DNA from: Schizosaccharomyces osmophilus
Taxonomy: Eukaryota
NCBI RefSeq assembly: GCF_027921745.1
Contig: NC_079238.1
Location: 2,790,001 to 2,854,000, forward strand
Direction of reading: 5' to 3'
DNA length: 64,000 bases
The position numbers and the translations under genes are program-made. Within the stretch, counting starts at the first letter, position 1. Every line of letters starts with the position of its first letter. Below are positions 11,101-38,141 of this stretch, one piece after another. The notes beneath the pieces are model-generated. The model worked only from the letters and a program-made list of their open reading frames with translations, was not told the origin of the DNA and did no database searches.

Positions 11101-13776
11101 ATGTTTGACGGAGGATATGCTCAAAAAATGAACTTTAGCGGTTCTGACTCGGGAACAACAAGAACACCGGACTTGTATGGACAAGGCAATAGCGGCCAGT
11201 TTCCCTCCTATCCCTCTAATAATTACCAGCTCTCATCATCGTCTAGACCGCAAATGGAAGGAAATCCAGGATATTCTGAGATGATGTTGCAAACGCGCCC
11301 GCCAGCGACAACACAGGGATTTCCATACGGCTCTTCAGGTACAACTGAAGGGGTACCTTCGGTACCATCCATACACATGGGAGAAACTAACCAGTTTACT
11401 TCTGCTCCTATGGCTTCTGCTGGTATGAAGCATGCGTCGCCGTCTATGCCACCTATGGCTTCATCCATTCAGCAGCAACAACATCAACAAATGTTACAAA
11501 GGCAACTTTATCTAAAAAGTCAAATGGAATCAGCAAATACTACGTTTGAACCCTCTTCTCAAAACAACCCTGAGTACCCCCCAAACACATTTCCTAACCA
11601 AAGTATGGGTGCCTCATCCTCCAGATCTCCTTCGATGGCGCCTGGTGTGCCTAACAATTCCAGTCCTCCAAACAGAAATAGCAACTCAAATCCTTCAGAT
11701 GTTGCTGAAAATTACAACAAATTTATGGTCAGTTTATTAAGTTTTATGGCGAAGCGTGGAACTCCGTTGAAGAATTATCCATCAATTGATGGATCTCCTA
11801 TAAATCTTATGATGCTTTATGCTCTCGTTATGCGCACAGGTGGCTCTAGGCGAGTAACAAGCTTAAAATTATGGCCCAAAGTTGCTGCTTCTCTTGGAAT
11901 CACTAATCCAAAAACAGTTCCCCTCTTGTATCAGCAATATAACAATTGCCTTCTTCCCTATGAAGAAGCATGGGCCCGTGCCCACCAACAAAAGCTTCGG
12001 TTAGAAAATCAAAATCAAACTCAAAATGAAAACCAAACTTCTTATTCGGAAGACCCAAGAATACTCACCTCTAGACAAGCATCCGTGCCGAAGATGGCAT
12101 CCCACGTACAAATACCAAATCCTAAAAGTGAAACACCGTCTCTGAATGTACCTTCATACATGACTGCTAACTATAAACCGTCACCCTCTCCTACTGCTGT
12201 ACCCCAACGAAGCGGCTCAATCCCACTTAACCCTTCTGGTAATGAAAAAAGCAAACCTTTTGCCTCCAATGTTTCGACACCCTTACCATCCGTATCCAAC
12301 CGACCTCCTCCAGCCGAACTTAGCGTTGAATCTCGTATTTACAATCCCATAAAAATAGACTTGGCGGGAACAACTGCTGGATTTCCTTTGCATCTTTCTA
12401 GCGCTCATCGCATTGATGAGTCCTTAATGCACTTGAAAATGCCATCTATTTCAAACTTAGGCTGCATAAACATTCATGCGCTATCCATGAGTCTCTTATC
12501 TACACTTTCTGGTGAAATGACTTACTCCCTCAATGTTTTACTTCTTTTGACGAATGATAGACAAGAAGTGGTGCATCTAGCGAAATGCGAGGAAGTAATT
12601 GATGCGTTGGTGGAAGTTGGATGGAACTGCTTGGATATATTGACTGAAAGACTTGCATCGGAATCAAATCAAAACCTTCACAACGAAAGGCCATCTTATA
12701 GGCATCTATTGCTAGAATGCATACAAGAGAATAACCTTCAAAAGATTCGGCCAGACAGCGGAGCTGAAGCTTGCCCTACTGATGAAAGAAAAAGTCGTGA
12801 ATTGACAGAGCAACACTTGCTTGCAGTATGTATAATATTTCGTAACATGTCTCTTGTTGACGAAACTATAATGAACCGTTGTCACGGATCTGAGTTTTTC
12901 AGCTTTTTAATGCGATTAATTCGGCTATTGAATCGTGGTGAGTCTTATTTGCTACCGTCCAAGCGTGCCATGTTAGATCTTCATAAAGACGTTTTGCTAT
13001 TACTTTCACAAGTGTCGCATAATATAGTGTTACCAAACATGGAATCTGCTTTGCAAATATTACATTTTATTTTAGCGTTTTCTCCTATAACGAAGAGATA
13101 TATCAAGCGAAATGGTTTGGAAACGGAACACTCCCAAAAATTTCCGTTAGACGTTCCTAATTATACCCCTTTCACACACCCCTATGTGGGACCCTCTATA
13201 GCTGTGTACGCAAAGTTGTTAGCTCGGGACACTACCAACAAAATCTTTTTTCAGACGGTCTTTGACCGAAATCCTGCTCTTCTAGACCTGACATTTCTCT
13301 TCCTTGCCTCCGTTATCCCAAAGTTCAATAGACAGTGTTTAAAGCTTTGCGAAAAGCGTCTACCATTGTTACAGCATGCCTTTTTATGTTTAGAAAACAC
13401 TGTATCGTTTATACGAGAACCATCCCAGGCGGTGTTTTGGTGTAACATTGGCGATGGTTTTTTTGCTTCTCTCATTCGTTTGTTAATTCTATTATCCGGT
13501 CATCCATCTCTTAATCCCGTTTTTCCTCCCGATGTTCCTGCCCGAACGAGCACGAATCCCTTCCGCTATATCATTCAAAATGGGATATTATGTGCAAAGA
13601 AGCTCTACCATTTAGCATGCTCGATCAATGCCCCAATTACCTCTTTCCCAAAAGGCGAAACTATTCTAGCGATCCTTCTTGCTCCTACCACCGACCGAAC
13701 GTTTTTGAAAGACCTATCAACTATATTGGATAAAGACCTTGAGGAACAACTATCTTTTAATAATAACTTTGAATAA
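11101..13776 (+). CDS. sol1: SWI/SNF subunit Sol1 (ARID domain, Swi1-like)
   Basis: ARID (FMAKRGTPL..INLMMLYALVMRTGGSRRV..WPKVA..LLPYE), low-complexity N-terminus, ARM-like C-terminus. Confidence 0.85.
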   Translation: MFDGGYAQKMNFSGSDSGTTRTPDLYGQGNSGQFPSYPSNNYQLSSSSRPQMEGNPGYSEMMLQTRPPATTQGFPYGSSGTTEGVPSVPSIHMGETNQFTSAPMASAGMKHASPSMPPMASSIQQQQHQQMLQRQLYLKSQMESANTTFEPSSQNNPEYPPNTFPNQSMGASSSRSPSMAPGVPNNSSPPNRNSNSNPSDVAENYNKFMVSLLSFMAKRGTPLKNYPSIDGSPINLMMLYALVMRTGGSRRVTSLKLWPKVAASLGITNPKTVPLLYQQYNNCLLPYEEAWARAHQQKLRLENQNQTQNENQTSYSEDPRILTSRQASVPKMASHVQIPNPKSETPSLNVPSYMTANYKPSPSPTAVPQRSGSIPLNPSGNEKSKPFASNVSTPLPSVSNRPPPAELSVESRIYNPIKIDLAGTTAGFPLHLSSAHRIDESLMHLKMPSISNLGCINIHALSMSLLSTLSGEMTYSLNVLLLLTNDRQEVVHLAKCEEVIDALVEVGWNCLDILTERLASESNQNLHNERPSYRHLLLECIQENNLQKIRPDSGAEACPTDERKSRELTEQHLLAVCIIFRNMSLVDETIMNRCHGSEFFSFLMRLIRLLNRGESYLLPSKRAMLDLHKDVLLLLSQVSHNIVLPNMESALQILHFILAFSPITKRYIKRNGLETEHSQKFPLDVPNYTPFTHPYVGPSIAVYAKLLARDTTNKIFFQTVFDRNPALLDLTFLFLASVIPKFNRQCLKLCEKRLPLLQHAFLCLENTVSFIREPSQAVFWCNIGDGFFASLIRLLILLSGHPSLNPVFPPDVPARTSTNPFRYIIQNGILCAKKLYHLACSINAPITSFPKGETILAILLAPTTDRTFLKDLSTILDKDLEEQLSFNNNFE

Positions 13777-14047
13777 TTAGTTGCTTCCTATTCATGTTGA
13801 TCTATTTTTGTTAATATTATTTCCTTCTCTTCATTCGTTGCATTCGCTTCATTTTATCTCTAACTAGTACTTTCATGCTCCTTTATTTCCCCATAAATGA
13901 AAATAGTGTTGTGTATACTTCTAAACACACAAATACACAAGCCCTTCTGGTTTAAATAATTATGCTTACGTTTTACTACTGGCATACAACAACAACTTAG
14001 TTTATAAAAAAAAGAAAAATTTATTATAAAGAAATCGACAAACAACT

Positions 14048-14154
14048 AACATCAGACATCCAAAGGAAGGACTATGGCCGTCATTTGCGACAAGATTGGG
14101 TTCGATGTCGCTCCGTGAAAACTGCGAATGTTTATTGGAAATTTCATCACCTGT
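14048..14154 (-). ncRNA. snoU14: U14 box C/D snoRNA
   Basis: Minus strand: box C GTGATGA (14150-14144), domain A CATTCGCAGTTT (antisense to 18S AAACUGCGAAUG), Y-domain hairpin GCGACA..CGAACC..TGTCGC, domain B CCTTCCTTTGGATGT next to box D CTGA (14055-14052). Confidence 0.95.
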
Positions 14155-14464
14155 CAGTCTTTGTCGATACTTTTTTCCATCACCCACAACAACTAAGCAC
14201 ATCTAAGACAAACTAAAGCTAACTGACAAAACTTTCATTGTCAAAAACTGGAAAAGAAAAGAACAGAATCCAAAACTCGCTCGTATAGGAGCAGCTACCA
14301 CGATTTATTCGATCATACACGCTTCTATATCAATACAGGAATACCGATACCTCAAACACTTTACGAGTTTGAAAAGTTTAAAACTTTCATGATCCCATCG
14401 CAAAAGCACACCTGAAAAAAGTTAGTAATGGGTTGGCAGTAAAGATCACCAAATGAAAAACGAG

Positions 14465-14590
14465 AGAATCAGACACCTAAAATACTGGCAAGTATTACCT
14501 CTTTCGGGAAAAAAAAATTGAAAGAGGCGTGTTGTATCGTCATAGTCGATAGGACGGGTAAAGAAGACGCATATTAATATCATCAGGCTT
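14465..14590 (-). ncRNA. Intronic box C/D snoRNA, snR190-like (probable snR107 orthologue)
   Basis: Box C TGATGA (14585-14580), guide GTCTTCTTTACCCG (14568-14555), C' ATGACGA (14543-14537), box D CTGA (14472-14469), flanking stem ACGAGA/TCTCGT; lies within a GTAAGT..TACTAAC..CAG intron (14622-14412). Confidence 0.85.
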
Positions 14591-15096
14591 TCTCGTTCTT
14601 CAATAGGATTGGAATAACTTACCTCTACAGACAAGTTTACCGAGAATCCAAAATTTTAGGTTTTCCAAAAATCACAAAAATTTAATGTTTCAGCTTCACA
14701 GCGAAGTTACATCTTAATCAACAGATCGCAATGTTTTATCACTCACAATACGCAGAGCCTCCAAAGTTATCGACACATCCGTCTACGAATTACCGTTTTC
14801 ACGATACACGATTACGCGTTTCCACGATTAAGACACGTCCACCTACTCCAGCTACGGCTTAGGAATTCCAACCAGCAGCTACTCATACGCATGATCCAGC
14901 ATTTTCAAGTGCCCAACTGGCAACAACACACTCCCGTCCAAAAAAGGTCCTTACACTCATCAGTCCTCCTTACAAGAACCTTCTCGTAATGAAAACCAAA
15001 TTCAATGCATCCACAGGACTGTGTTTAGCACAGGACTGTATAATTACCAGTGAAACACTTGAAGCTGCTTAATGAAAAAAGAGGTCCTTTGCTGTC

Positions 15097-15124
15097 CTTA
15101 TATAGATTAAAAAACCCTAACCCT
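15097..15124 (-). promoter_or_regulatory. TATA box (TATATAAG) and AACCCTAACCCT element upstream of the snoRNA host
   Basis: cttatata at 15097-15104 reads TATATAAG on the minus strand; AACCCTAACCCT at 15113-15124 resembles the AACCCT box/Homol-E/Teb1-Tbf1 motifs. Confidence 0.55.
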
Positions 15125-15712
15125 GAAAGTTCTGGAAGGAAAAACTGTGGTGAAAACAGTCCTTTGTAGCATCCATTACGTCATTGGGAATTTATCCAGC
15201 ATGGAAGAGTAGAGCAATGCACCACGCGGAATCGTAAAAGCATGTAACAGACTACAAAAGATAGCTCAGTATAGACTGTAAGGCAATTAAAGCCTTTCCG
15301 TATATGGAAATACAGAGATGCAAAAAGGCGACAATGAGAGCGGCCCTCCAACAAACTTCATACTTGTAACAAAGTATTGAACCAACAAATAGCTTTGTCG
15401 TATTCGGTTACAGAATTGTCGTTGATACAACCAACTATCCGGCTAATAAAAAAAGAGCCAACAACGAAATAAAATTTAAAACAAATATGCATACTCTATA
15501 GTACAACACGAATGTCTGTCAATTTCCCCATTGTTTACCAAAATGAAATAGCGAGTTGCGACAATGCACGGTAGACATTGCCAAAAAAATATCTTCCATC
15601 GCGCTATTCCAGCACTCCCAGCATTTTTTACATCGGCGGGACCTCAACTTCACGCTTTGCATAGAGAGCTAGAGCAATTCACTGCTTTAGCAGACAGTTA
15701 TCGAATCTCTTT

Positions 15713-16939
15713 ATGAAAAGCATGGGCACCAACTATGCATCTATGATGTTTAACAGCGGCTCCAATATTCTTGGCTATGGCGTTCTTAGACTTTTACAGT
15801 ACAATGAACAATTATCCTGCGGGTGGGAAAACACCATGAAAGAAGACATCGGATACTGGAGGAGATTTGTGCACAATTTCTTTACTGAAAAGGGAACGTT
15901 TCGATTTAATTTTGAACCCAACGCACAAAGGACTCGCGAGTCGAAGGAGTTTGAATTGTCGTATGCAGCTTTGCCGAGATTCTTCTATTTAAATTACATG
16001 GGAAACATGAGGCGAATGTCGATTGTTTTGGGTGATACGAAAGAATTCGCAATTCCTAATAATGGATATTTTGTCGAGTCCTCAAACGCAAGCCTTGTGT
16101 ATCAGTTTGCTAATGGTATACAAGTAATCATTTATGGTTGTTTGCGAGCGCACTTCCATCGTGCACCTCTTTTGAAATTGGACTCACTTGAATTCTCCGC
16201 TACCAACCATTCCGAGTATCTTCTTCGTGAACTTGTAGAAAATGCTTCTCTCGCCCAGCAGTATCAACAAGAGCGCCGGCCAGAACAGGAAAACACATCG
16301 ATTTTCCCTTCGCAAGGCAACGAACAAGCTCCGTTTTATCCTCCATATAATTTCGGTGCCAGTGCGCAACTCCCCTCAACGCCGGTGAACGAGTACGGGA
16401 TTGAACCACGAATCATGCGCTTTTTGGAAATTTCTGAAACTATTTCTGGGATGCGAGATTTAATAGCCTTTACTTTGGCTCAACGTTCAGGTCCGGCAAG
16501 TGCCCTCCAAAAGTTCGCTACAGCTTTACAGCAACAACAGCAGATGCAAAAATCTAGTGCTGCAAAGGTAGCTTTTCCGAGTAATCCCTCTGTAAATAAT
16601 CAAGTTCCTAATAACGCTGAAGCTCCATTTCCCATGGCCCCTTCCGCAGCTGCAACGGGAGGGCCTCCCGAATACCGCGTCCCTAATTACCCATCCAATT
16701 ATAATTATCACCAGTCCCAACGCGCCATGAGCACTAATTTTGATTCATCTCAATTTGCCAACCATTACCCACATCCAAACCCTCAATCGCCTGCTCCATT
16801 AATGAATCCTGCCTACACACAACCTTCTCAGAAAAGGTCCGCTACAATGTCTCCGCTGGGGGAACGCGAAAAGCAGGATGTTGATCCCTCGTTTTACCCC
16901 AATGGATCCTTGGGACCTCAGAAGCGAGCTAAAGCTTAG
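15713..16939 (+). CDS. adn1: LIM-domain-binding/Mfg1-like transcription cofactor Adn1
   Basis: LIM_bind-like domain (YWRRFVHNFFTE..LPRFF..VNEYGIEPRIMRFLEISE), Q/N/P-rich tail. Confidence 0.8.
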   Translation: MKSMGTNYASMMFNSGSNILGYGVLRLLQYNEQLSCGWENTMKEDIGYWRRFVHNFFTEKGTFRFNFEPNAQRTRESKEFELSYAALPRFFYLNYMGNMRRMSIVLGDTKEFAIPNNGYFVESSNASLVYQFANGIQVIIYGCLRAHFHRAPLLKLDSLEFSATNHSEYLLRELVENASLAQQYQQERRPEQENTSIFPSQGNEQAPFYPPYNFGASAQLPSTPVNEYGIEPRIMRFLEISETISGMRDLIAFTLAQRSGPASALQKFATALQQQQQMQKSSAAKVAFPSNPSVNNQVPNNAEAPFPMAPSAAATGGPPEYRVPNYPSNYNYHQSQRAMSTNFDSSQFANHYPHPNPQSPAPLMNPAYTQPSQKRSATMSPLGEREKQDVDPSFYPNGSLGPQKRAKA

Positions 16940-36992: not shown

Positions 36993-37641
36993 TGTGAGAA
37001 AGGTATTATAAAGTTTCTAGGGAAAGGACTAAATCGATCTAAAGAGGATGTCCATTCGCATTTCGTTTTTCAGATGGTAAAAATCATGTAAACATCCCTT
37101 TCATAACAAGGCACGTTGGTGGAATTAGTAATACTGTAAGATAATATTACTATATTACTAAGTTAATTAAATTCATCAAAAACTATTTAATTCATTTTCT
37201 CAGATGTACTGAAGAAAATAGAGGAGGACTATAGTGGAAGTTTATGAGTTTTGTTGTAAAGAATTATTTTGAACTCGCACTGATAATTCATCAGTCAACC
37301 ATATTCAAGGTACAATCATAACTCGGGGTGATTGAAGTTACGAAAGAAGGTATGTATTTCCTTTTTCTCGCCAATGGTTTTCTCACAACTCCACAGCTCT
37401 CCTTTCTTTAACTTTCAATGCCATTCTCTTTATATTGCAACCAGACCTACATAAAAAGTTTCATTTGTTGCTTACAGTGGAAGCCTCGTAAATTTTGTCT
37501 TAATCAGAATATTACTATTCATATAGTGTAACAAAGGATGCATATTTTCAAGAGAAAATTCCCAAATAAAACAATCTACTTGATCTCAATTGTACTCCAA
37601 TTCCACATATATTTATTTTGCTTTAATAAGCCATTAACCAT

Positions 37642-37715
37642 GGTCGCATGATGTAGTTGGTTATCATGTCGATCTAATAAGTCGAATGTCGCCAGTTCGA
37701 GCCTGGCTGTGACCA
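37642..37715 (+). tRNA. tRNA-Ile (anticodon AAT)
   Basis: Acceptor GGTCGCA/TGTGACC, D arm ATGTAGTTGGTTATCAT, anticodon stem TCGAT-CTAATAA-GTCGA, T arm GCCAGTTCGAGCCTGGC, followed by a T-run Pol III terminator. Confidence 0.95.
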
Positions 37716-38141
37716 TATTTTTACATATTTAATTCTTTTTGTTTATTGTCATTCTTTAATGATTTAATGCCATATTTTACTTTTATTTGATTTGTTTTTT
37801 TTTTTATTATTATTCCATACGTTTCGTGATTGTTTTGCTTGAAAAAAAGAGTAAAAGCAGGACGTACAAAATATAGAACATACAATGTTTAAAGGTGGAG
37901 AACACGAGACTACTTTTGTGCCGCTACAATGTTTTGTAGTAGTTTGATCATAAGAGAAATTTATGATTCCTTTTTCATTTAAGGAAAATAAAAAGACAAA
38001 ATCCAACAAAGTAAACAAACACTATATCTCGGGTAAATAACCTTATTCTCTAGCGAGAGTTTCTCGCTTTGTGGTGACAGCTAGATTTGAACTGAGTACA
38101 TTAATTTTTAGAAAGCACACTTTTAGTACAAAAGACAAAGA

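Follow-up and report, generated by a model that had tools for sequence, protein, structure and literature searches.

An intronic box C/D snoRNA of the snR107 family upstream of U14 in a Schizosaccharomyces locus, predicted to guide 25S rRNA methylation

The snoRNA locus lies on the minus strand between two plus-strand protein genes of the window (the whole 64-kb stretch of DNA analysed). One of them encodes an ARID-domain protein and the other a LIM_bind protein of the Adn1-like, adhesion-defective type, which is 85% identical to the protein of S. octosporus, 83% to that of S. cryophilus and 55% to S. pombe Adn1. The search with the LIM_bind protein returned six proteins at E ≤1e-10, including the window's own, and two others were about 30% identical. 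By these identities, and by its differences from the S. pombe letters described below, the window probably derives from a non-pombe fission yeast, a Schizosaccharomyces of the octosporus/cryophilus group other than the two strains matched. The space between the two genes is occupied by a non-coding, mamRNA-like host transcript with two snoRNAs, one in its intron and one in its downstream exon. Elsewhere in the window, a tRNA-Ile gene with the anticodon AAT is located at 37641-37716 (+). The features of the locus are the following.

11101-13776, plus strand: gene of an ARID-domain protein, 891 aa (domain match)
14035..14411, minus strand: downstream exon of the host, carrying U14 (contig cover; UNAAAC at 14381 and 14372)
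14048..14155, minus strand: U14 (SNORD14-family) box C/D snoRNA (match to the whole RF00016 model, 57.2 bits with a cut-off of 64, E 6.2e-11)
14412..14622, minus strand: host intron, 211 nt, GT..AG (splice signals; skipped in contigs)
14412..14414, minus strand: 3' splice site CAG (sequence motif)
14421..14427, minus strand: branch point TACTAAC (sequence motif)
14464..14591, minus strand: snR107-family box C/D snoRNA gene (RF04328; a 155-nt contig of run X3 over 14435-14588)
14469..14472, minus strand: D box CUGA (CTGA; sequence motif)
14480..14492, minus strand: second antisense element, ASE2, CUUGCCAGUAUUU (complementarity to residues 331-343 of the printed S. pombe 25S)
14481..14496, minus strand: AAUACU-UGCC-AGUAUU (AATACT-TGCC-AGTATT; sequence motif)
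14497..14528, minus strand: post-C' stem-loop, a 9-bp stem with the 14-nt loop AAUUUUUUUUUCCC (fold of -11.5 kcal/mol)
14537..14542, minus strand: C' box UGACGA (TGACGA; sequence motif)
14543..14549, minus strand: spacer UCGACUA (TCGACTA) between D' and C' (fits the upper-case consensus of RF04328)
14550..14553, minus strand: D' box CCUA (CCTA; motif, letters as in S. pombe)
14555..14568, minus strand: first antisense element, the ASE1 guide, GUCUUCUUUACCCG (DNA GTCTTCTTTACCCG; 13/14 pairing with the S. pombe 25S helix 73 letters)
14580..14585, minus strand: C box UGAUGA (TGATGA; sequence motif)
14617..14622, minus strand: 5' splice site GTAAGT (sequence motif)
14623..15029, minus strand: upstream exon of the non-coding host, minimum extent (contig cover in runs X3, X6 and X8; UNAAAC at 14738 and 14692)
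15713-16939, plus strand: gene of the LIM_bind protein, 408 aa (domain match and protein search)

A scan of the whole window with Rfam at gathering thresholds gave two matches, snR107 and a tRNA. The snR107 model RF04328 matched at 14591-14464 (-) with an E value of 8.5e-22 and 112.8 bits, the cut-off being 44. The alignment runs end to end over model positions 1-118 of 118, and this is the single snR107 copy of the 64-kb window. The upper-case positions of the RF04328 consensus are matched throughout the part from the guide to the C' box and in ASE2, and the RNA departs from the model mainly by 11 nt inserted into the loop of the post-C' stem. A permissive scan restricted to 13300-15800 gave three matches (snR107, SNORD14/U14 and snR190), whereby the snR190 model RF01249 reached just 16.4 bits against its cut-off of 40, with an E value of 0.95. 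The stretch therefore belongs to the snR107 family by its covariance-model score, and it carries all four boxes and both antisense elements, next to U14 and to a fission-yeast flanking gene.

The initial annotation, made from the letters of this DNA, had proposed an snR190-like box C/D snoRNA, and the RNA does belong to the lineage of snR190, snR107 and SNORD12. All the motifs it listed are present in place on the minus strand, and the similarity to the snR190/snR107 family models, whose absence it had named as a refutation, proved to be far past chance at 112.8 bits for snR107. Its likeness to snR190 holds at the level of the wider family, since snR190 is named an orthologue in the excerpted parts of PMC11971394, but not at the level of the snR190 model itself, with 16.4 bits against 40. 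Likewise, the feature and its wider family were recognised correctly, whereas the context had been missed: a non-coding host transcript whose intron holds the snoRNA, and U14 further downstream.

In S. pombe, snR107 is described as a box C/D snoRNA of 107 nt that lies upstream of U14, within an intron of 227 nt in the lncRNA mamRNA (Leroy et al. 2025, PMC11971394; this paper, PMC8536666 and PMC12508059 are all cited here from excerpts). It has the boxes UGAUGA, CCUA, UGACGA and CUGA, is bound by Fib1, Nop56, Nop58 and Snu13, and is termed orthologous to snR190 and SNORD12/B/C (PMC11971394). The window has the same four boxes, in that order, and the two RNAs also share the ASE1 letters, the A opposite a G beside the target and the ASE2 core CUUGCCAGUAU, together with the intronic position in a non-coding host and U14 downstream. 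The D'-C' spacer region, which bears a conserved 6-nt k-loop motif in S. pombe snR107 (PMC11971394), is conserved as well. Differences are found just 5' of ASE1 (window UAUGCGUCUUC, S. pombe UAUGUCUUC), within ASE2 (GUAUUUU against GUAUCUU), at the 5' end (GCCUGAUGA against UUCUGAUGA), in the bases flanking boxes C and D, as well as in the length of the intron, 211 against 227 nt. Counted from the C box through the D box, both included, the span is 117 nt, and the mature RNA is predicted from the sequence to have about 120 nt, against 107 nt in S. pombe, because the post-C' stem-loop carries the 11-nt insertion with its run of nine U. The snR107-U14 organisation is reported to be conserved in related Schizosaccharomyces species (PMC12508059, EMBO Rep 2025), and no paper naming both 'snR107' and 'octosporus' was found in the literature searched.

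The loop of the post-C' stem-loop (14506-14519, -) contains a U9 run in the window and a U10 run in a contig of a related organism (organism B, see below), making it a length-variable homopolymer inside the snoRNA. A 21-nt stem-loop is dispensable in S. pombe snR107 (PMC11971394), and the U-rich insertion is most simply explained as neutral, because this is the corresponding part of the S. pombe RNA. Outside the boxes, GAGAA at 14594-14590 is complementary to UUCUC at 14468-14464 over 5 bp. There are no UNAAAC motifs within snR107 of the window, and likewise none in snR107 of S. pombe.

Ten sequencing runs matched the interval 13900-15400. Two of them, which are DNA of organism A, a possible source of the window, cover the interval completely, whereas the four from organism B, presumed to be RNA, cover 24-34%. 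Three of the latter (X3, X8 and X6) were used together with the DNA run X1 of organism A. Contigs of X3 and X8, two of the three organism-B runs, join 14409 directly to 14621, skipping 211 bases bounded by GT..AG on the minus strand. In the DNA run X1, no join across the 211-base intron was found, and X6 had contigs on both sides of the intron and none bridging it. The joined contigs are 95-99% similar to the window and therefore come from a close relative and not from the same strain; the intron is removed in the transcripts of this relative, the runs being RNA by presumption. Moreover, a separate 155-nt contig of X3, a run likewise presumed to be RNA, spans the snoRNA over 14435-14588 with one extra base in the U run, although such contigs show neither RNA ends nor abundance. 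On the host strand, no ORF of at least 60 aa was present at the upstream exon.

Over the exonic parts, organism B differs from the window by 8 substitutions and 6 indels, 14 in all. None of the 14 falls into the 220 nt of exon adjoining the splice sites and all 14 fall into the 443 nt further out (P of about 0.004 if evenly spread); inside U14 there are no differences. The difference-free exon parts are 14300-14411 and 14623-14730 (-), and the four UNAAAC motifs cluster around the intron. Four copies in the 663 nt of exon examined compare with a mean of 0.48 in mononucleotide shuffles, where four were reached once in 2000, and with about 1.1 predicted for 663 nt if the motif were as dense there as in the window overall, 1.6 per kb on each strand. 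In the snR107-U14 transcript, a stem that forms only across the spliced junction is described as a Pac1 site (PMC12508059). In the window, a Pac1-type junction stem folded with 60, 90 and 120 nt on either side of the junction gave 24, 29 and 47 bridging pairs; of 200 shuffles, 50, 46 and 15 had as many, and the exon-exon junction fold was not better than shuffles at these three lengths either (MFE z of -0.24, -0.85 and -0.33). The invariant splice-adjacent exon and the UNAAAC cluster thus fit a constrained junction-spanning structure and/or Mmi1 sites, while the fold itself is no better than that of shuffles.

U14 lies downstream of the intron, 256 nt from its 3' splice site, and both conserved 18S-complementary blocks are aligned in its match to the family model. 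Its 57.2 bits lie below the cut-off of 64, so an annotation at the gathering threshold would miss it. The synteny of snR107 and U14 found here is the layout described in the excerpts of PMC11971394 and PMC12508059.

The ASE1 guide is separated from the D' box by a single U. Its pairing, as well as that of ASE2, was judged by the letters of S. pombe 25S as given in PMC11971394. Reverse-complemented, the guide agrees with the 14-mer CGGGGAAAGAAGAC in 13 of 14 letters, and with at most one mismatch this 14-mer has one site in the 64-kb window, compared with a shuffle mean of 0.02 and any match in 2 of 100 shuffles, which confirms the guide match of the initial annotation. The fifth base back from D' (+5) is C14558, and the mismatched A14559 adjoins it, opposite a G. 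The +5 rule had been used to point to the G equivalent to G2395 of S. cerevisiae, and this assignment is upheld, the corresponding residue in S. pombe being G2483. Mismatches adjoining the target usually lower methylation guided by C/D RNAs.

For S. pombe, ASE1 is printed as 5'-UAUGUCUUCUUUACCCGUCC-3' against 25S 3'-UCCCAGAAGAAAGGGGCGAC-5' (PMC11971394 supplement), and the printed pairing contains the identical A:G mismatch beside G2483. ASE1 of this RNA guides 25S Gm2483 (PMC11971394), with a RiboMethSeq value at G2483 that falls from about 0.85 in the wild type to about -0.5 in the snR107 deletion, the ASE1 mutants and the splice-site mutants (PMC11971394). The word 'mismatch' is absent from the main text and the supplements of that paper. 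The mismatch and the CCTA letters of the D' box had been taken earlier as grounds for a poor guide; both are present, but they do not speak against guide activity, because S. pombe snR107 has both and its Gm2483 depends on the guide. By analogy, Gm at the G2483-equivalent position is predicted to be directed by snR107 of the window.

Counted from the D box, ASE2 takes up +8 to +20 and is thereby out of methylation register, which fits the absence of a modification there in S. pombe. Its S. pombe counterpart is printed as 5'-AUACUUGCCAGUAUCUU-3' against 3'-AGAGAGCGGUUAUAAAU-5' (PMC11971394 supplement), and from these letters the pairing was derived by hand. The partner expected in 25S domain I is predicted to be AAAUAUUGGCGAG, and, should this species have the same 25S, the C-to-U change would raise the number of pairs from the 11 of S. 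pombe to 13. Such sameness was considered in other LSU sequences: a 20-base 25S motif from the paper's supplement marked at least 29 LSU-bearing loci, and the ASE2 target, allowing up to two mismatches, was not found in the seven LSU loci examined. Locus L027, which holds a whole eukaryotic LSU, reads differently at the ASE2 target. The target therefore varies between fungi and is not to be assumed for this species. As side observations, the whole eukaryotic LSU of L027 (187-3983, with a group I intron at 2524-2866) comes from a MAG labelled Bryobacteraceae, with a second LSU copy about 10 kb away on the same contig, and many bacterial- or archaeal-labelled genomes or MAGs among the at least 29 loci carry eukaryote-type LSU pieces, likely by assembly contamination.

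In S. pombe, 35S processing, 60S levels and the control of Mei2 depend on ASE2 and the k-loop, but not on ASE1 (PMC11971394), and both the k-loop spacer and ASE2 are conserved in the window. The suggestion made in the initial annotation that the RNA acts as a 60S folding aid is supported insofar as a methylation-independent 60S role is documented for S. pombe snR107, yet it had been tied to the mismatched guide, while the documented role needs ASE2 and the k-loop.

The budding-yeast counterpart, snR190, leaves G2395 unmethylated and serves as a chaperone by way of its boxes A and B (Jaafar et al. 2021, PMC8536666), its divergent C'/D' boxes being the suspected cause of the inactivity (PMC8536666). 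It is an orthologue according to PMC11971394 and is also located upstream of U14, and its antisense elements both have the same 25S targets as those of snR107 (PMC8536666). The 5' half of snR190, as represented by metagenome locus L035, has CCTGATGATA, TCTTCTTT, CGTCC, TCGAC and ATGACGA in common with the window, and the 3' half, compared by eye, has CTTGCCAGT. In contrast, its guide CUUUCCUCG has C at +6 and U at +4, followed by the D' box CCGA, whereas the window reads CUUUACCCG and CCUA. Furthermore, snR190 is about 190 nt long and is freed by Rnt1 cleavage, while the snoRNA of the window lies in a spliced intron. A dicistronic, intron-less release by RNase III of the snR190 type was accordingly rejected for the window: the synteny with U14 is present, but the snoRNA is intronic. 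In humans, the orthologous SNORD12/12B/12C are, by description, intronic in the lncRNA ZFAS1, with ASE1 guiding 28S Gm3878, a small ASE2 and no U14 synteny reported in the excerpts (PMC11971394).

A search of metagenomes with a 26-base snR107 pattern gave 0 loci. A looser, 22-base degenerate pattern gave 30 (L030-L059), four of which (L035, L040, L045 and L046) are snR190 with U14 of the budding-yeast type. The other 26 were rejected as snoRNAs, having no Rfam match, no C box and one common unrelated sequence family, and are taken as chance matches, which a 22-base degenerate pattern still collects.

Three other explanations of the feature were weighed. A chance resemblance to C/D boxes and rRNA has no point in its favour and is practically negligible in view of the E value of 8.5e-22, a guide site expected 0.02 times per window and the synteny with U14. 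It is also very improbable that snR107 is a decaying or unexpressed relic without function in the intron. Although none of the ten runs matching 13900-15400 is RNA of the window's own organism, all the boxes and both antisense elements are intact in what is the only copy of the window. Moreover, the host is spliced in the close relative, where a separate contig spans the snoRNA, and the relative's copy equals that of the window except for the one extra base in the U run and one other letter, as read from a single low-depth contig.

An RNA of the snR190 type that acts as a chaperone only, binding helix 73 and domain I of pre-25S without methylation because the guide is mismatched (A:G) at +6 and D' departs from the consensus, is the reading towards which the initial annotation leaned; it deserves somewhat more weight and is still improbable. 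The mismatch and the CCUA box are truly there, and in S. cerevisiae G2395 is unmethylated despite the comparable guide of snR190, for which the authors blame the divergent C'/D' boxes (PMC8536666). However, S. pombe snR107 shares the guide, the mismatch and the CCUA/UGACGA boxes, and Gm2483 is highly prevalent there and depends on snR107 and ASE1 (PMC11971394). The window, in turn, equals the Rfam snR107 consensus throughout the block from the guide to C' and scores 112.8 bits on the snR107 model against 16.4 on that of snR190. Indeed, snR190 is better paired at +6 and yet does not methylate, while the mismatched snR107 does, so the mismatch does not decide activity. With high confidence, then, the minus-strand feature 14591-14464 is the Schizosaccharomyces box C/D snoRNA snR107, whose host is a non-coding transcript with a 211-nt intron around the snoRNA and U14 in the next exon. 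It is a predicted guide for 2'-O-methylation of the 25S G that corresponds to S. pombe G2483, and through ASE2 it likely aids 60S assembly as well.

For snR107 in this role, the following course can be proposed. Splicing would set the intron free, after which trimming by exonucleases would leave a snoRNP of about 120 nt containing Snu13, Nop56, Nop58 and Fib1, as expected from homology with S. pombe, whereby the 5-bp GAGAA/UUCUC complement could draw the C and D boxes together. ASE1 would then pair with 25S helix 73, with one A:G mismatch, and place the +5 G (the G2483-equivalent) under Fib1, and ASE2 would pair with domain I at residues 331-343 (S. pombe numbering) as a folding or processing aid; both steps are modelled on the homologous RNA. 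Finally, the k-loop and ASE2 may support control by Mmi1-Mei2 as in S. pombe, which is the least certain step.

Overall, snR107 of the window is already known in kind: it is an ordinary, Rfam-detectable copy, in a sister lineage, of a characterised snoRNA. As one further copy of an RNA that was characterised in S. pombe and has its own Rfam family, it adds little, and the layout of the locus was previously reported as conserved in related Schizosaccharomyces (PMC12508059). The points for specialists are the shared A:G mismatch, the U-rich loop insertion and the two extra ASE2 pairs. The mismatch is unchanged between S. pombe and this distant clade, whose flanking protein is just 55% identical, and a single A-to-C change would perfect the guide duplex. 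A speculative joint reading, to which we give a low probability, is that the A:G mismatch was selected in fission-yeast snR107, weakening the helix 73 duplex just enough for both methylation and release, and that, separately, the U9-U10 loop gives snR107 of this clade a run of consecutive U of the kind bound by Mei2 RRM3 in vitro; S. pombe snR107 has the k-loop without such a run. If the reading of the mismatch were true, the A:G mismatch would be a selected feature of the guide and not a defect.
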